DNA of 63,608 bases, the filler included, from Albugo candida (Eukaryota), in assembly GCA_040437565.1 (NCBI GenBank). It is 8 parts of 8 records of this genome, joined end to end, with 100 filler letters (N's around TTAATTAATTAA, not from the genome) between each part and the next. Parts side by side here need not be neighbours in the genome. Positions count along the whole stretch, not along the records: positions 1 to 8,417 come from JBDOQK010000123.1; 7 more parts are not named here. One strand, given 5' to 3'. Below the pieces are notes generated by a model. That model searched no databases and was not told the DNA's origin. It saw only the letters and a program-made list of their open reading frames with translations. Below, piece by piece: positions 1 to 43,121 of the stretch. How positions within the stretch are numbered: the first letter of the stretch is position 1; each line of letters starts with the position of its first letter. A program made the position numbers and the translations under genes.

Positions 1-2042
1 ATTGAATTAATCTTGAAAAAAAAAATAGCGGATTCTAAACAGATTTTTAAGTTTTTGTTATCACTGTGGTCCATCTCTGCACTGTTTTTTTTGACATCGA
101 TTTTTATACGAGTGCATTTGGTTTAGTTTAATTTGGTGTACGATAGTGAAAATTCAACAGTAATAACCAGAGAACGATTTTTAGCGTGGATGTACTGGAG
201 ATATCTGTTAAGCCTGCTTGGCCTCACTCAAATTTCCGAAAAACAAAGCTTTACTCTTGATTAACAGTTACCAATAGTCTTCCTAAATACAAAATTTTCT
301 GCTTCAAGTTGATTAATTTTTTTGTTGCTAGTATTTTATTTGGTTGGATTATATTAGGTGAATGTTTAAATAGAAAGGAAATTCCAAGAGACACGAAAGT
401 CACCTATCATGTACCTTTTACATTCAATATTACAAATAAAATTAAAGTAGATGAACGATAGTTTTTATTAAGATAAATAAATTGGAAGCTGTTCACAAAA
501 TATACTTGTTCCACGGTATAAATGAGTCGGTAGCACACGAGCCTAGATTTTAACCAGTAAAAACTTCAAATTTACGGTTCACAACAATTTCAGTTTTTAC
601 GTTGCAAAAGCATCTAGTTTACGAAACAGGTCTCTGATTTATTGATACGCTACTTGTAGTATAGTGATACATAATGTGATTAGTAAAACACTTTAAGTTT
701 CGGTTTATCGGAACAATTCTGGTGGTTTACTTAAAAACACATGACAAAAGACAAGAGCAAAAATTTAACATTATATCAATGTTTATTAGCAAAAAATGTC
801 GCTTCGGCACATGATTCTCATTTTCGAAGAAAGAAGATTGATGAAATGGAGTGCCATAGGGCTTTGAAGTCATTTCTTTGTTGTCAAATAAGTTATTATA
901 AAAAAAGGTAATAATTTTGAACGCGAAGACAACACCTTTGAAGAGCGCTGTATTGAGTTGTTGAACGATGACAACGCGAGAAAACTGTGAGAATGTATCC
1001 TGTATTGCGACAAATTTGTCATGTCCTAAAGTTTTTTTACGTTGCTAAGTTTCGGAAAGGATGCCTTTCCTTAACGTGTCACAAAGGATGTCTTTTATTG
1101 AACGGTTTCGAAAGAATGCCTCATTCGCTCTCGCGAAGAATTCCAATTTAGGTCTTTGGAAAAGAGAGTAAGATTTATGCATGCTATCTATCTTAGCAGG
1201 AGGATCTTGTGTCGCGTTCCGGATTTTTTTTTCACCAAACATAATACAGCAATTTATTTTGTAATGACTTAACGACTCAACAAATATCACATATTTCGTT
1301 CTCTAGCTGATACTACTGATTGATCCCGTAATAATATATTATTCTTTTTTTCCTTTACTGAACTTTTGTTAGTCTCGATAACTAAAAGCTAGGGTTGCTT
1401 ACGAGCCGACTTGTGATCCTTGAATTGAAAGCTCTTAGTGCTTAAAATGTTACGGACCTTTTGGGTTCGTTATAGGATAAATCAGTTTTTGTACAATACT
1501 TCCGCAGTTATTAAAATACATATTTAAAAAATCCGGTTTTAAATTTAGATCTTTCTTCTTCCAAGTGAAGGCGGTTATCTTGAATATTGTATAATTTTCT
1601 GTACCACTGATTAGGGAAAAGCGTGGATTCGAAGGTGAAAATACTTTATTAACTGTTGAAACTCACTGACTTTTTGTGGGACAAACCAAAAACAATCCTG
1701 ACTCTTTGTTAACTCTATTAAAACAAATCACACTATTCTGAACAATTTAAAGGTATCTTGAGATATTAGCTGATCAAATCGTTGTAGAAAAAAGCAATAC
1801 ATAGTTATAAATTTAGTTTCACAGCGAATAAAAATATGAATGAACACATGTTTTGACGACTCATAAAATAAAGTTGTAAAAAAAGCTATGGTAACTTTGT
1901 GGTATGCTTACAGTCTAAAAGTTAGCAATTCAGATTGTATAAAGCAAACTTATTTATTTATTTTAGACAATTATTTATAGAGCAAAATAGATGTTGGCTT
2001 TTTACTGAAGAAAAACAAAGCGATATAAATTTTTTATTTAAA

Positions 2043-2752
2043 CTACTCGTAACTCTTACGCAAGGTATCTACAACAATCCCCAACTCTCTCCAGTATCTA
2101 CAAGTGTTTTTTGTTAGTCCAAAGGTGTTTTTGATCTATCGATGATATTACTTACGGCAACATATCTTTCTTTTTGTATTTTACCGAGGCAAGGGTACCT
2201 GGTAAAACGCAAACCCAGTGTTGTTCTTCTATGTTTTGGTAATCCGAAGTTATTTTACCTCTTTGGAGACCATAGTTTGGAAGTCTTTTTTTTTCAAAAA
2301 AGTGTTCGTATGTTTTTCTTCCTACAAAACAAACAACTTTTGGACGATAATTATTGATTGCATTAATTAAACTAATTTTTCCTTCTTCCATTTCCTCATT
2401 AGTAATGTCATCATCACCACCGTGTTCATCAGCACAGTAGTACATAAAACTAATACGATGTTTTTCATTAAGCACTGTATCATCTAGTGGGGTAAGGGTG
2501 TCGGTAGAGTTTATAACTGATCTTCCAGCTATGTCTTTGTAAGGTAAATGTTTTAGAAAATCTTTGTCTATATGAAATATTGTAGTTTTTTTACTTACTG
2601 TATTCTTTTATAAGTTCCCAAAAAACGTCTTTGTGGCGAGCAAAAAAATGGTTGCGGAATTCTTTGTTTCTAGGTCTCTCCCAAACACTTGTTTCAACAA
2701 AAAGAACAAAAGATTTATGTTTCAAGAGCACACTAGGTTCTTCGCGGGTCAT
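2043..2752 (-). CDS. Divergent MUG/TDG (family-2 uracil-DNA glycosylase)-like protein, predicted catalytically altered; 3 exons (2752-2599, 2528-2156, 2097-2043), 193 aa
   Basis: Spliced model MTREEPSVLLKHKSFVLFVETSVWERPRNKEFRNHFFARHKDVFWELIKEY...INNYRPKVVCFVGRKTYEHF...VCVLPGT...YWRELG. GT-AG introns 2529-2598 and 2098-2155 (ACTAAC branch point in the latter) lie at the same positions and phases as in the neighbouring paralog. GINP is replaced by ETSV. Confidence 0.75.
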
Positions 2753-3497
2753 GTTGTGTTGGTTTAAGTTGTTGGAAAAAGGGTTTAATATTTCAATGAA
2801 CTAAAATAAAGCTTACTTATATATTTCATTTGTAGTACAGACACAAATACTCTGAGGCGTCTTTTCGGGCCGATTACTTGCCTAAAAAGTAAATTTGTAT
2901 TACATTGTCGTCGGTATAATAAAGAAGACATTTCACGTCTTCTGCGGAGATCATGTTTGACGTATGTGTATTCTTTTAACTTATAAAGTTTGGTACCTTG
3001 TGAGTTAAAAAAATGGGCCCGATTTTGGATTTTAAGCAGTGAAAAAGTGTGACCCCAGATTTTTTTTTTAAAGCTAGTGTTATTACTAAAAAAAAAGTAT
3101 CCTTAGAAAGAAAGCTTTATTTGTCACTTAAGCCATAATCTTAGTATCAATACATTTGTTAAGCTATGGTGTTTCAGGTGATTTACCCATACGTCTTTTA
3201 TTTTTCAACAAGAAAATGTGTTTCAGGAGCTCTGTACTGCAGTCTACAGATTAAATTGAACCGGCTAATTTTTATGTTCATGAAATGATGGTACAATGTA
3301 TTTAAAATCATTTTCCCCAGAAGAAAAATTACTTCATATTCAGCCGTTTTATATTTACAATAATTAGCAAAACCATTTTATATCTTCTAACAACGTCAAT
3401 TAAAGTCTTTATTTATTAAAATTAATACGAGATATTATTTTCAAAGATCAATAAGAGATTTCATGTACCAGAATAATAGGCTGTTTTATTTACCAAA

Positions 3498-4212
3498 TTA
3501 AAGAGCCAGATGGATGTTGTTTTTTGTGATGTACTTGGCAAGATCCGAAAAAAATCTGGTGGTTTACAAATTGATTAATTGGTATTCAGATAACATGTGA
3601 CTGATATCAGCATGACTATACCTTTTCTTATCAGCGTGAGAATATTTAGTGCCAAGATTACTTGTAGATGGTAGGACAAATACACGACAAGTTTTTCCTG
3701 AACTCAATTTTAGTGGTTTTTTTGGACCAACTTTAATTTTGGCGTTGGGGTTATTTGTAAAGTGTCGATACATTTCGAGACCTACAAAACAAACTAATTC
3801 TGGAATGCATTCTTCAATGCATCGCAATAGTTTCTGTTTACCATGTTGGTACTCTTGCTGAGTCAAGTCATTTGCACGTCTTGTAGGTCTTTCCACTAAA
3901 TTAGTAAAACCGACATCATAGTATTTATGCAACCATGTATCATCACAAGGAAAGTGTGTGTTTGGGGGTACAATACCTATTTAGGAACGTGTTATAGTTT
4001 ATTTTTAAATTAAACAAATGAGCATGGCTGTTCTTACCACTTTCGGACAGGCATTTCCAAAACATGTTTCCTCTTCCACAAAAAAAATGCCCCTTGTACA
4101 CTTGAACAGGTGAACTTGTTGGATTGATGCCTACAAATAGTATCTTTGTTCTCTCATTAACCAATGAGGGTATGAGTAAGTCTTCCTCAAAGCTTTCGTT
4201 TCCGTTTTGCAT
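3498..4212 (-). CDS. G:T/G:U mismatch-specific DNA glycosylase (MUG/TDG family); 3 exons (4212-4038, 3976-3622, 3555-3498), 195 aa
   Basis: Motifs ILFVGINP, GHFFCGRGNMFWKCLSESG, GFTNLVERPT, PELVCFVG and VLPSTS match TDG/Mug. GT-AG introns 3977-4037 and 3556-3621 restore one continuous frame. Confidence 0.9.
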
Positions 4213-4413
4213 TACTTTCAAGAGTGGGTCCACTACAAATTCAAGGGAAAGAGAAGGCTTTGTTTTCGGTCAAAATAAATGTGTATTTATAACCAATTTA
4301 ACACAATAATATGCAGCCTGATTTGTAATTCGTAGGAGAATGCTTTATATTTTAGTACTACCAAAACTGTGGGAACTGGTATCAATACTCGTGTTTGTGT
4401 AATTAATACTAAA

Positions 4414-4473
4414 TAATTGATTATTGTCTCTTTATTGAAATAAAACTAATTGATTATGTCTACTTTATTGAAA
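4414..4473. repeat. Imperfect 27-bp direct repeat, each copy containing a minus-strand AATAAA
   Basis: taattgattattgtctctttattgaaa (4414-4440) and taattgattatgtctactttattgaaa (4447-4473), just 3' of the 4509-5908 gene. Confidence 0.6.
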
Positions 4474-4508
4474 AAGTGAATCATTGAAGAGAGGAAAAAT
4501 AAAATGTA

Positions 4509-5908
4509 CTAAGTAGACTTTTGCTTGCCTTTGTTCTTTTTTGGTTTTGGTTTTGGTTGTGTAGGCTTTGGTTGTGTAGGCTTCGATTTAGCTGAATTTG
4601 ATTGGGATGGCTTTGATTGGGATGGCTTTGATTGGGTGGGCTTTGATTGGGTGGGCTTTGATTGGGTGGGCTTTGATTGAGTTGTTTTTTTTTGAGTGGG
4701 TACGGCTCTTTTTCTTTTCTTGGGCTTAGGTTCAAAAAAATTGTCATCATCATCATCACTATCATCATCATCCGCACCTCCTAAGTGTAACTCATTCAAA
4801 CCCAATGTGGATGTAGTTGAGGCTTAGTTTACAGTTGCACAAGTAAAAATAAGATTAGATGCTGAGAAAATGTATTAATCAAAACTAATTACCTTGTGAC
4901 AAAGAAGATTGGATACTATTTTTCGAGATGTCTGTATGATCACTCAAAACTGAAGTAGATCTTTCCCTCGCTTCTTCTTCCGCAGCTGCAGCTGCACGTG
5001 CTCTTTTCTCCTTATTTCTTGCCATGAAATTACTAATGTCACGTTTTGGTATTTCGGGAGTACGAGAACGATCCAAAGATGGTGTCAAAGATGGTGCTAA
5101 TGAAACTGATCTACTACGAGTTGCAGTTTGTTGTGTAACGGTAGAATTACTCGAACGTTCGCTATTATTGTCATCATCACTTTCTTGTGTGTTTTCTGAC
5201 TCGCTTCCATGCATATTTTCTTCCTCGTTTTCATCTGTATCTTCTTCGTCCGAAGAGCTTTCATCCACTGTATAAGTAAAGTCGAAGTCAGTCAAGTTAA
5301 TTTTTTATGGGGATATTTACGGAACTTACAATTGAACTGCTCTCTAGCATCAGCATTTCTTGTTGATCTTCTTACAAATTCCTCATTTGTAAAATTAAAT
5401 CGAGCGTGTACGTTGGTCATGTTGATTGTTTCATCCGCCATACTATCGGTACGAGCTCTTGCTCTGTCTCTTATACGTGTGGGTACAACCGGGTCACATG
5501 CGACGATGTACAATTGAAGAGCCCTAATAGAGTGTCTGACATCGTTAATATCACCAAGAATATCTGCATCTACTCTCACGGGGGTAGAAAAGCCGCTAAC
5601 GATACCAAATAATGGCGATCCTGATGTTGTAGTAGGTAACTCAATTGGCGTGAGTGCTACACGATTGTGCGCAGTTAACGCGGCGTTCAATACATCTCGT
5701 GTAATCTCAACTCTTGTGGCCGATAATCTACATGACATAATCTTTTAGCGATATTGTGTAATTACTTAAATTACGTTACTTACAATTCTGTGTGGTGCAA
5801 CTCAAAAATGTAATCTTGTTGAATTGAAGTATTATCGGTTCCTGTACCTTGCAAATGCAGTTGTCTAGGGAAAAAAATGCCCCATGAGGTAGTATAATTA
5901 CTTGTCAT
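4509..5908 (-). CDS. Hypothetical nuclear protein: globular N-terminus, acidic tracts, NLS-like motif and (TQSKP)n basic tail; 4 exons (5908-5784, 5727-5330, 5267-4893, 4822-4509), 403 aa
   Basis: Three GT-AG introns of 56, 62 and 70 bp join the listed ORFs 5292-5738, 4885-5295 and 4509-4805 in frame with an upstream exon MTSNYTTSWGIFFPRQLHLQGTGTDNT. Contains DESSSDEEDTDENEEE, PKPKKRKR and pentapeptide repeats. Confidence 0.7.
4545..4685. repeat. 15-bp coding minisatellite encoding TQSKP/SQSKP/TQPKP
   Basis: Tandem gattgggtgggcttt-like units. Confidence 0.85.
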
Positions 5909-6283
5909 CTGTGCGAAATGTAATGTGTAAGTTTTTCTATCGAGTAACATTCTCGATTTCGTGAGGCGAAGCCCATTACTCGATTTTGATTTATTTTTTG
6001 ACTCACCTGAAAAAAAATTGATTGTGAAAAAGTTTCAAGTGCGATATACTGTGCTTTCTCTTATACTTTTTTACGGGGTTAATTTTATCAACTGTTACAC
6101 TTGGTAATATTAGTGTGGGTACGTAAAAAGAAATCACAAGATAAACTTAAATTAATGTGGGTACACGTAATATTCGGTATCACAAATATGTATAAATAAC
6201 TTGAGACAACTTTCCCATCGTTTTTGAAATCATCTTTCACGATAACCTTTCACTTTTCAAAAATACTTTTATTAATTTTTATC

Positions 6284-7005
6284 ATGCTTAACATCGAAGC
6301 CGAAATTCGTCTTTACAACGGTGGTAAATTTACTGTTGGAACGGATAACACTGTCAACTATGAGATTAAAGGCTCATGCGCTGGGGGAACTGTCACTCTC
6401 TATACCACGGACAACAATTTAATTCTGTATGCAATTAAACATGCGGAAAAACACGTGAACATGCTTGTTCAAGGTAATGATTATTTTATTTGCACGTTTT
6501 TGTTAGATACTTATACTCACCTTAATTTGGCTATTATTTAGGACCTGTGGTTATGAAGGCTTGGGTCTCTGACAACAACCAAGCTAGACCACGCTTGCAA
6601 GGTACCTGCGAGCAAATGCAGCGTTTGCGTTCTCGGGTGAACCGTGTCTGGATGCCTATGGTTTCAACTGAAGCTGTAGGTTCTCTTCCCATCTCCAAGT
6701 TGACGGATTACTTGGTCATGAGACATGTTGCTTCCAAGTGGGGAACTGATGCCGTTGTTGTCCGAGGACACAATTCCCTCGGTAACTTTTGCATACCCAT
6801 GCAAGCTCTTCACAACGAGCTTGTTGAAGAAGAAGTTATTGCTGATGGTCCTCTTGTTGTTTCTGGTGTCCTCCCGGATGAGAATGAGATGGAAGAAGAT
6901 GAAGAGAATGACGATTTTGCTGAGCAGTTACGCCGCCGTCGTGAACGAGAGCAAGAGGCCAGCGATCTCGTCATTTCTCCCATTGACAATATTGTCATTA
7001 ATTAA
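6284..7005 (+). CDS. SSB-like OB-fold single-stranded DNA-binding protein with acidic C-terminal tail; 2 exons (6284-6473, 6542-7005), 217 aa
   Basis: Splicing out 6474-6541 (GT...TTAG) creates MLVQGPVVMKAWVSDNNQARPRLQGTCEQMQRL, which aligns without gaps to the SSB consensus as I recall it ([33 protein letters not shown]). Acidic tail DENEMEEDEENDDF. Confidence 0.6.
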
Positions 7006-7143
7006 ATTTTAATTAATAAAAATTATTTCTTCTGTTTTTCCCCCCAAAAATTATTTTTTTTCTCAATAATTAATTTTGCTCTTTTCCTCTTCAATTACTT
7101 TTTTTTTTTTACTAATTGCTTTATTATACAATTAACTTTTCCA

Positions 7144-8417
7144 ATGTCATTTTCTTTTTCCCGTCAATCTCGAATGGAAGCTAATGCTCGTCAACCCAAT
7201 GCTCGTGTTCGTGAAGAATTTGTAATGGACAATCGCATGAAGCGACATGTCGAAGCTTTTCATGAATTCAAAAATGAAAAGATTTCATTCTATTGTGCTA
7301 TTTGTACTAAGCTCATGTACAAATCCGATTGCAAGGAACGTATGTGTGCTACACCTCTCCATTTGTTGCCTTGTAACGAGTGGGGTCTTGCCCCTATTGT
7401 GACACGTTTGACCAATTTGGTCATCGTTTGCTCTTCTCACGTGAGTGGTGCTGAGTCAGGTCCCTACAACTATCCCGGTCCCTGTGTTGAAGGTGCATCT
7501 GCTTTGAATTACCGTGAATTGTCTATGCTTTCCCCTGTAAAGATCATGTCTCAAATTACTCGCAAGGGATCAATCTCTAGAGGTATTCTTGGTCATTATT
7601 CCGTTGGTGGTAGCATGTGGTCCGAGCACAACTACGAGTTTGCTCAAATGCTGTACAGTGGTTCTCTTGGCTTGACCTACAGCCGTGAAAAAAAAGGGTC
7701 CGTCAAGATCAACATGGCAAAAGTCCGTGGGGTTTATAATCGCTTGAAAAAAATTAACCCTCTTGTTCGCGACTTTGAACTTCCTGAAGTCATGGAAAGT
7801 TTGATGGAGTACCACATGGTCACCAACGAAAAGCGCTTTCCTGGTTGGAACATGAACATGTTGATGCCCGTAGGTGATGTTCCTGCTACTGCTAGTGGTG
7901 TAGCGTTAAATAATCTTGTCATTGGTAAGTTTGCGTTACAATGTTTAATCAAGGGCATAATATTCAATTAGTTTTTATTTTGTAGGCCGTGATCTTGTCA
8001 ATAACAGTGACATTTACTTTTCACACCCTGCTTTAATGGCATTGTGCTTTCCCTGGTTGTTTACCACAGGTTCAGGGCACTACTCTATGTGCTCTGTTCC
8101 TAGAGACTACTCTGGCCCCTCTGAACGCGAAGGTGGTATTGCACGTGCTACCTTGGAAGGTGAAACTTTGAAAGGGTTTGCTAAGAGGTACCTTAATTTA
8201 GCTGATCGTCGCTTCGCACGGGATCCTCTTTTTCTCTTTTTTGTACTTGATGCCGTCGAGAAACACAATATTGCCAGTAGTAACAGACATGTTGTTTCTA
8301 CTCGTGGTAGAGAACTCACACAAGGTGATGTTTACAACAATTCAACAAAAAGCCATCGTAAAGATAATACCTCCTTGGTCAGCCATGTCATAAGATCTTC
8401 ATTTGCGTACAAGCGTA
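7144..8417 (+). mobile_element. Helitron2/Helentron-type Rep(-helicase) gene, N-terminal part (Zn-binding, DUF6570-like, Helitron_like_N); intron 7925-7985; truncated by gap
   Basis: CAICTK...VCSSH; LNYRELSMLSP; INMAKVRGVYNRLKKINPLVRDF (cf. V..KV..AL.WLK.NNPLY.DI); ALCFPWLFTTGSG; LNLADRRFARDPLFLFFVLD. These are hallmark motifs preceding the HUH domain. The frame stays open to the gap. Confidence 0.8.
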
Positions 8418-8517
8418 NNNNNNNNNNNNNNNNNNNNNNNNNNNNNNNNNNNNNNNNNNNNTTAATTAATTAANNNNNNNNNNNNNNNNNNNNNNNNNNN
8501 NNNNNNNNNNNNNNNNN
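8418..8517. other. Artificial contig linker (N-run + TTAATTAATTAA + N-run); also at about 16870, 25025, 32997, 40711, 48410 and 56082
   Basis: Identical six-frame-stop spacer embedded in Ns at seven places. Confidence 0.97.
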
Positions 8518-40823: not shown

Positions 40824-43013
40824 TTAGACACAAGGCCTAGTACAAGCAAAATATAATGCCCAAGCGCGACTTAGTCCGTCGTCAAGTGCGCATTCTAGAA
40901 GTACTTTGCATGCTTCGTGCTTATCAATGAGGCTGTAATTCGTAAAAAGTAGAGACGTCCAGCCGGAATTACATTCTCGCCATTTTTTGACTGCATCAAG
41001 CTTACACAGAATGGTTTTCCATTCTTCCTGAACAAAACCCCTTCGACGAAATGCTTCCATTGCCGGTATGACGGGGAGCATTTGAATGCCATGAATACAC
41101 TCTTTATTTGGACTGAACCAGGTCGCATAATCACACTTATTATCAAACATGATACCTGTGACTTTATTGTTTCGAAACTCTGGAGGATGTGTGACGTTAT
41201 CTTTGGAGATAAGAAAGTAGGTTGAAATTGTCAAGGCTTCCAGCTTCATCATCAAACTACCAGCAACTTGTAAGCGCACATTGTGAACAACTCGACCATA
41301 AAGTGCAAGTCCATAGAAGAAATTGATATCCTCTGACATGCTTTCCACATCTTTTCCATCAGCCATCGGTGTGATCCCATGAGAGTACGAATGCCCATAG
41401 TACCAGTTGAAGTTTCGAAAGGATGGAAAATAAGGATTGTGGTGGGAATCTGTGTTTGCGACGTCATTAATTAGGCTCTCAGTCACACTTTTGAGTAGAT
41501 CGGCTTCGTGGGATTGAGCCAATTCCGAATCCAGGAATAACAAAATGGCCACCGCTGTGATAAAATATCCGTAGTGGTAATGATGGTCATTATAAGCCAA
41601 GCTGCCAAAGTCGACATGGATATCATTTTTCTTAAGACCCTCACTAGACACGATCCCTTTGTATAATGTGTCGTAAACAAGCGGAAAAGATGATTTATTC
41701 TCTGCAAACAGTAAAAGATATTGTTTCAATTTCTGTCGTATCGCCACGCTGAGATTTACCATCGCGGGGTTTTCTGTTAGAATTGCCAATTTGGCGGACA
41801 ATAAACATAAACTTCCGATCTTTTGCAGTGCTTTGCCTCGAAAGTAATAGCTTGCTTGTGGATTCTTTGCATTCGGCCAGTCTTCAGCTTCAATTTCGCT
41901 TCGTAAGATCTCGCACAATTTTAGCTGCGTGATGTCTTGCATTGATATCTCACGTGGCGAATAAAATTGAAGGCATGCATCCACCGTTTGGTCGATATCA
42001 CAAGGAATGACAAAGTGCCATTGTAAGGCATTACGAGTCAAAAATGCTCGCATGAGACCTCGAGTATGACTGTATAACGATAGCATAGGCATCAATTGCA
42101 GATTACTACCACATAGTGATTTCATATGGTGTTCCAGTGCGAAATGCAGAAACTGAGATGCATTATGTCCATCGACACAGTTCTGAACATCCCATACAAT
42201 ATTGTAGCTCGTGGTAGATCCACCCTCATCGAAGCAAAAGTTTCCTCCATTCACATATACGCCAGCAACAGAGTCATATATTTCATCAACCTGCTCGAAA
42301 TTCTCATAAGGCAGAATTGCGGCTTGCACGGCGCCAGTGAATTTTTCTCTTGTGGTAAGGTGGTCACCTTGGAATATGAGTTCATGATCCACAGTGCTGA
42401 AAAGGTACAAACACCAATGCTGATTGTTGTTGAGGGATATAACCAGTTTTTTGCCGCAATAGACGTTCCCCACAATCCCGGGCTTATGATTGATTGACAA
42501 GATAGCGTGTCCAAATGAGATTTTTGCGTGTAAATTTACGTAGTGTACTGTCGTAAATGCTGACCCCGTTGCCAAATATGTTTCCATTGATTGTGCGACC
42601 TCACTCGAATGAGCCTCATGAGACCATTGTAATCGAACTCCGATATCGTCCCATCCATTTATTTTGAAGTTTGTAGTTTCATCGAATTCTACTGCTCCAA
42701 AAATCACACCTTTTATAGTTGCTGGGAAGAAGTAGTATTTAATAGCATCATTATCGTTTTTGGGACCTTTAACCATGTACTGAAACAAGTAGCTTGTTGA
42801 GAGGCTTGTCACTGAAACTTGTAGAGTGTAAGGGCTTGAAAAGACAGGGTCGCTCTCTTGTCGATCCTTCCAGGCTAGCAAATTACCCCACCAATCATTT
42901 GTTGGAATAGCAATCGCATCTCCGAGATGCTTTACAAAATGAGGATATATAATTTTACACAAATCTCCGGTCTTTTGAAAGACCTCTGAGGGTGGGGAAG
43001 CGAACAGAGTCAT
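40824..43013 (-). CDS. Endo-1,3(4)-beta-glucanase, glycoside hydrolase family 81
   Basis: IPTNDWWGNL, DFG..YNDHHYHYGYF, FRNFNWYYGHS, DGKDVESMSEDINF, IHGIQMLP. Intronless; first ATG at 43013. Confidence 0.93.
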   Translation of the reverse strand: MTLFASPPSEVFQKTGDLCKIIYPHFVKHLGDAIAIPTNDWWGNLLAWKDRQESDPVFSSPYTLQVSVTSLSTSYLFQYMVKGPKNDNDAIKYYFFPATIKGVIFGAVEFDETTNFKINGWDDIGVRLQWSHEAHSSEVAQSMETYLATGSAFTTVHYVNLHAKISFGHAILSINHKPGIVGNVYCGKKLVISLNNNQHWCLYLFSTVDHELIFQGDHLTTREKFTGAVQAAILPYENFEQVDEIYDSVAGVYVNGGNFCFDEGGSTTSYNIVWDVQNCVDGHNASQFLHFALEHHMKSLCGSNLQLMPMLSLYSHTRGLMRAFLTRNALQWHFVIPCDIDQTVDACLQFYSPREISMQDITQLKLCEILRSEIEAEDWPNAKNPQASYYFRGKALQKIGSLCLLSAKLAILTENPAMVNLSVAIRQKLKQYLLLFAENKSSFPLVYDTLYKGIVSSEGLKKNDIHVDFGSLAYNDHHYHYGYFITAVAILLFLDSELAQSHEADLLKSVTESLINDVANTDSHHNPYFPSFRNFNWYYGHSYSHGITPMADGKDVESMSEDINFFYGLALYGRVVHNVRLQVAGSLMMKLEALTISTYFLISKDNVTHPPEFRNNKVTGIMFDNKCDYATWFSPNKECIHGIQMLPVIPAMEAFRRRGFVQEEWKTILCKLDAVKKWRECNSGWTSLLFTNYSLIDKHEACKVLLECALDDGLSRAWALYFACTRPCV

Positions 43014-43121
43014 TGCTAACCGACAAAAATAGAACGTGCACGCTGGACAGTCCAAGATACGGTAGAATCAGATCAACTCAATTTTTATTAAATGGTGTGC
43101 ATTCAATGTCTGATTATCAAG

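Follow-up and report, generated by a model that had tools for sequence, protein, structure and literature searches.

What becomes of a DNA glycosylase gene that keeps an open frame and the core of its fold while the loops that cut and contact DNA are replaced? The question is raised by a locus in Albugo candida (assembly GCA_040437565.1), located in a stretch of 63,608 nucleotides (nt) made of eight joined parts with filler between them, referred to here as the window. In the first part (positions 1 to 8,417, from JBDOQK010000123.1), two genes of three exons each are arranged head to tail on the minus strand. The right-hand gene, R, encodes a canonical family-2 (MUG/TDG) protein of the uracil-DNA glycosylase (UDG) superfamily, and the left-hand gene, L, encodes a degenerate paralog with the same fold. 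The reading favored here, with a probability of roughly 0.55, is that L is a maintained old paralog with replaced catalytic and DNA-contact loops, most likely a non-excising, poorly DNA-binding, noncatalytic UDG-fold module.

Gene R (positions 3498 to 4212, minus strand) consists of exons at 4212-4038, 3976-3622, and 3555-3498, ends with a TAA stop codon at 3498-3500, and encodes 195 amino acids (aa). Its first intron (3977-4037; 61 nt; GTAAGA..TAG) interrupts the Gly59 codon in phase 1, and its second (3556-3621; 66 nt; GTATAG..CAG) interrupts the Arg177 codon in phase 2. Gene L (positions 2043 to 2752, minus strand) consists of exons at 2752-2599, 2528-2156, and 2097-2043, ends with a TAG stop codon at 2043-2045, and encodes 193 aa. 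Its introns are located at 2529-2598 (70 nt; GTAAGT..TAG; phase 1) and 2098-2155 (58 nt; GTAAGT..TAG; phase 2, splitting the codon of Pro176, the residue aligned to Arg177 of R). Both start codons are the first ATG in their own open frame, and the window as a whole has a eukaryotic look (short GT..AG introns; GC content of 0.32 to 0.45). Intron 1 of L has three in-frame acceptors, TAG at 2529 (193 aa), AAG at 2535 (a 64-nt intron; 195 aa), and TAG at 2568 (206 aa). The TAG at 2529 appears to be the best acceptor and is preferred, with the AAG at 2535 being the poorer one; the 206-aa model is rejected, as it requires a 31-nt intron and the remaining three introns measure 58 to 66 nt. The AT-rich spacer between the stop codon of R and the start codon of L (2753-3497; 745 nt; GC content, 0.30) carries no coding signal in any frame. 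A third MUG/TDG copy was not found within the window by tblastn.

Gene R serves as the reference against which L can be read. Scanned exon by exon against the Pfam UDG family (PF03167; cutoff of 24.3 bits), R and L score just below or below the cutoff, with E values of 5e-5 (23.9 bits) for exon 1 and 4e-5 (24.0 bits) for exon 2 of R. Among solved structures, exon 2 of R matches human TDG (1.5e-7) and Escherichia coli MUG (2e-7), and exon 1 matches human TDG (2.8e-6); the top NCBIfam model is TIGR00584 (mug), with 8.5e-11 for exon 2 and 4.1e-8 for exon 1. The features that define family 2 are all present: the GINPG-type motif 1, the GFTN..ERPT loop, and the PSxS insertion loop. Motif 1 (GINP at 4120-4131, minus strand; GINPT at residues 28 to 32) contains Asn30, equivalent to N140 of TDG in the alignment to TDG GINPG. 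The GFTNLVERPT loop (residues 81 to 90; 3882-3911, minus strand) contains the Asn equivalent to N191, both TDG numbers following from an alignment offset in which the Asn of GINPG is residue 140 and that of GFTN is residue 191. Motif 2 with the insertion loop, PSTSNLG (residues 161 to 167; 3651-3671, minus strand), has Leu at the position of Arg275 in TDG, as in MUG. R has every family motif, as an ordinary gene for a family-2 glycosylase does, and we infer that its product initiates base excision repair as an active mismatch-type glycosylase.

The functions of these residues are described for TDG and MUG. N140 is strictly conserved in TDG and MUG and positions the nucleophilic water, and the N140A exchange in TDG causes a >10^4-fold loss of activity, while N191A costs 6- to 3,800-fold depending on the substrate (PMC9800633). 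The water-activating residue of motif 1 is N18 in MUG (PMC4333384), and the flipping finger of TDG is Arg275 (PMC4357730). L lacks all three family-2 features. In place of GINP, it carries ETSV (2684-2695, minus strand; ETSV(W) at residues 20 to 24), with Ser22 at the position of the catalytic Asn. The GFTNLVERPT loop is replaced by SFMYYCADEH (2422-2451, minus strand), which puts a Tyr where TDG has N191 and an Asp where the Arg of ERPT would be. The third loop, PSTSNLG in R, reads PGTLASV (2182-2202, minus strand), in which Leu occupies the S273 position and Ser has taken the place of the wedge residue. An earlier note on this DNA had described a tandem, same-strand pair of MUG/TDG-family genes encoding 195 and 193 aa, with an open left copy in which GINP is changed to ETSV, GFTNL to SFMYY, and PSTS to PGTL. 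The gene models and family matches bear out the pair, both lengths are reproduced from models derived from the sequence, R ends at 3498 and so falls within the range given, and the coordinates confirm the open frame and each of the three replacements.

Despite these losses, L is recognizable as a member of the UDG superfamily, to which R and L are both assigned by profile or fold match. Exon 2 of L reaches 1e-3 (19.7 bits) with Pfam UDG, under the cutoff, and matches human TDG at 1.1e-4 and E. coli MUG at 7e-3 among solved structures; a profile of the L-type clade described below matches TDG at 8e-7. TIGR00584 is again the top NCBIfam model (1.6e-9 for exon 2). Since R and L both find their best matches in TIGR00584 and in TDG and MUG, both are family-2 derivatives. 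Exon 1 of L gives no match with Pfam UDG and no UDG match among solved structures and is recognized only through R. The strands of the fold core, LFV, VCFVG, and VLP, are retained in L. A further motif, YGLQ (residues 137 to 140; window positions 2263-2274), is common to the L clade and has its counterpart in FGLQ of TDG, where R carries KVGPKK within residues 137 to 146. An AF2 model of L exon 2 alone, built on a seven-row alignment, has a mean pLDDT of 60, rising to ∼78 over residues 42 to 113. Foldseek returned 16 matches at an E value of ≤1e-3 for the confident part, and all among the matches listed are TDG/MUG chains; the best is 3ufj (2.2e-4; ∼80 columns; root mean square deviation of ∼2.7). 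The predicted model supports the retention of the UDG fold in L and carries no information on the pocket. The two proteins also differ in charge: L has a net charge of 0 (isoelectric point of 7.06), compared to +8 (9.14) for R. The 26-residue segment that starts at the replaced GFTN loop has a net charge of −8 in L and +1 in its equivalent in R.

An exhaustive HMMER scan of 1,835,955,588 protein representatives with L finds 21 proteins at an E value of ≤1e-3. The best match is P0002, a 110-aa protein from a Logan contig with 54% identity over 110 aa (E value of 1.8e-29). Five more fragments of the L type (P0003, P0004, P0005, P0007, and P0009; 100 to 152 aa) come from JGI metagenomes and Logan and carry no protein name beyond "hypothetical." The L-type proteins share a signature of their own: F-x-[FY]-Y-[VCIT]-x-D takes the place of GFTNxVERPT, a YG[LMI]Q motif is present, and LP[SG]x with a hydrophobic residue after it replaces PSTSG. 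The position of the ERPT Arg is Asp in L and in five of the six other L-type rows. In a maximum likelihood tree of the exon-2 region (25 rows and 126 columns), for which the L-type rows were picked as the best matches of L, the seven L-type rows form a single clade that excludes R, with a support of 89/85. L groups with P0002 (97/90) and R with P0001 (99/96), a 96-aa Logan fragment that is 53% identical to R and is its nearest and sole close relative. R is placed among canonical, eukaryote-like rows, and P0006, a canonical row with a long branch, attaches beside the L-type clade. The split between L and R is old, because L falls with distant L-type fragments and R with canonical rows. L thus appears to belong to an old, rare, and conserved clade in which the catalytic and DNA-contact loops are replaced.

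Further searches add little to the membership of this clade. A word-indexed protein search with exon 2 of L gives nothing at an E value of ≤1e-3 among 2 candidates, and the same search with exon 2 of R gives one protein among 2 candidates. With the L-type alignment as the query, 9 proteins are found among 412 candidates, comprising 4 known L-type proteins and 5 canonical bacterial-type MUGs, with no new L-type member among them. A scan of metagenome DNA for L-type loci returned 27 loci, all canonical and MUG type with RPT loops and none L type; a scan of viral contigs matched 271 patterns, of which none was confirmed, and ESM Atlas gave generic bacterial UDG clusters only.

Several observations argue that L is maintained. 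Its frame is open across three exons with canonical splice sites. In the local noncoding DNA, 6.7% of codons are stops, and the chance of an open frame in this composition is ∼2e-4 for 124 codons and ∼1.6e-6 for 193 codons. Codon-usage scores for exons 1 and 2 of L are +0.08 and +0.01 in frame, whereas the other frames score −0.36 to −0.91; R behaves similarly, and the spacers score ∼−0.5 in every frame. P0002 carries the altered motifs of L: FMYYC..DE of L corresponds to FMCYC..DE, and PGTLAS to PGTVES. The path lengths in the tree are 0.91 between L and P0002 and 0.90 between R and P0001, which would be suggestive of L evolving no faster than the canonical enzyme if P0001 and P0002 share one source organism. 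The ends of these two fragments ("..SR YVI" and "..MKK" then a stop) look like read-through of a phase-2 donor, the same one in both. A recent, decayed copy is rejected as a description of L, given a 54%-identical relative with the same altered motifs and an old clade that excludes R. We infer that L is under purifying selection. The claim of the earlier note that the left copy is maintained is upheld indirectly, by a relative with the same altered motifs whose divergence from L is like that between R and P0001 (54% versus 53% identity).

R and L share 26% identity in BLASTP (E value of 3e-15) and 53 identical residues among 183 aligned in a global alignment. Exon 1 of the two genes gives a local alignment score of 54, compared to 19.6 ± 3.5 for shuffled sequences, with none of 5,000 shuffles reaching 54; exon 3 shows no significant similarity, as 4,678 of 5,000 shuffles score equally high. 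Likeness between the genes at the DNA level is limited to 46 nt with 72% identity around the VCFVG codons. Intron 1 lies in phase 1 in both genes, within the seventh codon past the conserved Trp of the FW motif, and a gap of a few residues in the global alignment falls exactly at this junction, on the acceptor side. Intron 2 is a phase-2 intron in both, and the codons that it splits, R177 and L176, align with each other. The same codon and phase at each donor confirm what had been claimed earlier for a phase-1 intron after FW and a phase-2 intron near the C terminus, and the high divergence claimed for the pair is equally borne out. The tandem duplication proposed with them is sustained by the shared introns and the adjacency of the genes, but not as a simple local duplication followed by decay, since L groups with distant fragments and R with canonical proteins. 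A recent duplication is rejected, as almost no similarity is left between the genes at the DNA level and they fall apart in the tree. The best reading of the shared introns and of the adjacency is a tandem duplication of ancient date whose products are still linked here. In P0013, an unrelated canonical-type Logan fragment, the sequence "..ASG KRRDW.." is what would result if a G|GTAAGA donor at the codon and phase of intron 1 were read through. Because of this pattern, intron 1, at least, may be older than the L/R duplication.

Four other explanations of L compete with a noncatalytic module. L may still be a DNA glycosylase or another DNA-modifying enzyme of new specificity; its pocket would have been rebuilt, and it would rely on another catalytic residue or on unusual conditions. 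The fold core is kept, the replaced motif 1 contains a Glu, and the L-type proteins have conserved motifs of their own: the N191 position is aromatic, one Tyr is invariant, and the S273 position is hydrophobic. A precedent is DR0022, a UDG-fold protein that seemed inactive and works in special conditions (PMC9796141). In contrast, the pocket, water-positioning, and DNA-wedge loops are all three replaced in L, its net charge is 0 with the −8 segment where the family contacts DNA, and the Glu of ETSV is seen in L only, its relatives being known from the exon-2 region alone, which leaves a new enzyme rather unlikely. A reader that binds DNA at lesions or modified bases and no longer cuts is decidedly unlikely, although loss of catalysis alone need not abolish recognition, because the N140A and R275A variants of TDG still recognize mismatches (PMC4357730), and UdgX shows that UDG-fold proteins can bind uracil-DNA tightly (PMC4787834). 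Beyond the catalytic residue, L has lost the ERPT loop and the insertion (wedge) loop, Asp stands for the ERPT Arg in L and most L-type rows, and the protein is neutral overall. The idea of a lesion reader is weakened because the DNA-contact loop is replaced by a segment with a net charge of −8 and the wedge loop is lost.

An unexpressed relic, a pseudogene with a frame that stays open by chance, would fit the AT-rich, transposon-flanked stretch in which L lies and the outcome of the word-indexed searches, in which no existing database protein corresponded to L or R. This is very improbable given that, at only 26% identity to R, L still has three open exons and canonical splice sites, and given the small chance of a 193-codon open frame, the codon usage shared with R, and an open fragment elsewhere that is 54% identical and has the same altered motifs. 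A secreted decoy for a glycosylase inhibitor made by the host is hardly credible, as the N terminus of L, read by eye, is charged and without a hydrophobic leader, and environmental metagenomes also contain L-type fragments.

A number of points weigh against the noncatalytic module itself. DR0022, a UDG superfamily protein without the canonical residues, is active only at acid pH (PMC9796141), and TDG N140A retains measurable activity on some substrates (PMC9800633). The L-type rows were chosen as the best matches of L, and the support for their clade (89/85) is moderate; the relatives are all exon-2-sized fragments, so the loss of the catalytic Asn is seen in L alone. The strongly acidic segment is limited to L and P0002: the other four L-type rows that span it have net charges of 0 to −3 by hand count, and P0009 lacks the start of the segment. 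The AF2 model of L covers a partial domain and is weak at a mean pLDDT of 60. Finally, P0001 and P0002 are fragments that may come from different organisms, so that the argument from equal rates is no more than suggestive.

On the module reading, L would no longer flip and hydrolyze bases by the mechanism of the family, and its binding to DNA would be weaker than that of R; because both abilities are probably reduced or gone, L would act as a noncatalytic UDG-fold module. Most plausibly, it would do so by contacting other proteins of base excision repair or of processes close to it, with the neighboring R as one candidate partner. A broader and much more tentative proposal, on balance doubtful, is that the L-type proteins form a conserved, undescribed eukaryotic clade of dead MUG/TDG-fold "pseudo-glycosylases," kept beside the active family-2 enzyme and working with it, for instance in the role of a regulatory or hand-off subunit of base excision repair. 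Dead relatives of enzymes with regulatory or scaffolding roles occur in many enzyme families. The poxvirus uracil glycosylase D4 has an essential role of this structural kind within the UDG fold, as a processivity subunit of the polymerase acting through protein contacts; unlike L, D4 belongs to family 1 and keeps its catalytic residues.

The closest known systems are the catalytic domain of human TDG and E. coli MUG, the best sequence and fold matches of both genes. R shares with them GINP, the GxxF..GN.FW segment, GFTNxVERxT, the VCFVG-type strand 3, and the PSxS loop; L shares with TDG the strand core, the FW helix, and YGLQ (FGLQ in TDG), the last being absent in R. Unlike TDG, R and L are bare catalytic domains of 193 to 195 aa without the disordered arms, and R resembles MUG in having Leu at the position of Arg275. 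L differs from both TDG and MUG in having no equivalent of Asn140, Asn191, ERPT, or the PSxS wedge and thus fails the motifs that define the family. The bacterial proteins UdgX and DR0022 are like L in combining the UDG fold with nonclassical motifs, and theirs is not ordinary turnover excision (PMC4787834 and PMC9796141). Both still have uracil in DNA as their target and fall on superfamily branches other than that of L, which is a eukaryotic family-2 derivative with replaced DNA-contact loops. Searches of the openly accessible literature returned no description of a MUG/TDG clade lacking the catalytic motifs or of these genes in oomycetes. If the L-type proteins are indeed maintained and noncutting, they offer a natural experiment that shows which parts of the TDG fold have a use besides base excision, and base excision repair in one group of eukaryotes might prove to have a new accessory factor. 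If L is active instead, it would represent a new catalytic solution within the fold.

The surroundings of the pair differ in composition from the rest of the window. The first ∼6 kb (positions 1 to 6000) is more AT rich, with a GC content of 0.32 to 0.37, compared to 0.38 to 0.45 elsewhere. The GC content at third codon positions is 0.31 in both L and R, 0.39 to 0.47 in eight other long open reading frames (ORFs), and 0.26 in the neighboring ORF at 4885-5304. This ORF and the one at 4509-4823, both on the minus strand, contain eight copies of a 15-nt tandem unit (4533-4697) that encodes pentapeptides of the SKPTQ type; the repeats sit in the Lys-rich tail of the neighboring gene, after acidic and Ser-rich stretches, and Pfam has no family match for these two ORFs. 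At 7006-8473 (plus strand), long ORFs run into a stretch of N's (∼8430-8505), and the second of them has a subthreshold match with Helitron_like_N (E value of 0.059; 14 bits compared to a cutoff of 28.9), so these ORFs may be a transposon fragment beside the gap. Farther along the window, the N- and C-terminal domains of a GMC oxidoreductase are found in two adjacent ORFs at 18712-20689 (minus strand), probably one gene with an intron, and an ORF of 747 aa at 40827-43067 (minus strand) encodes a GH81 endo-beta-1,3-glucanase.

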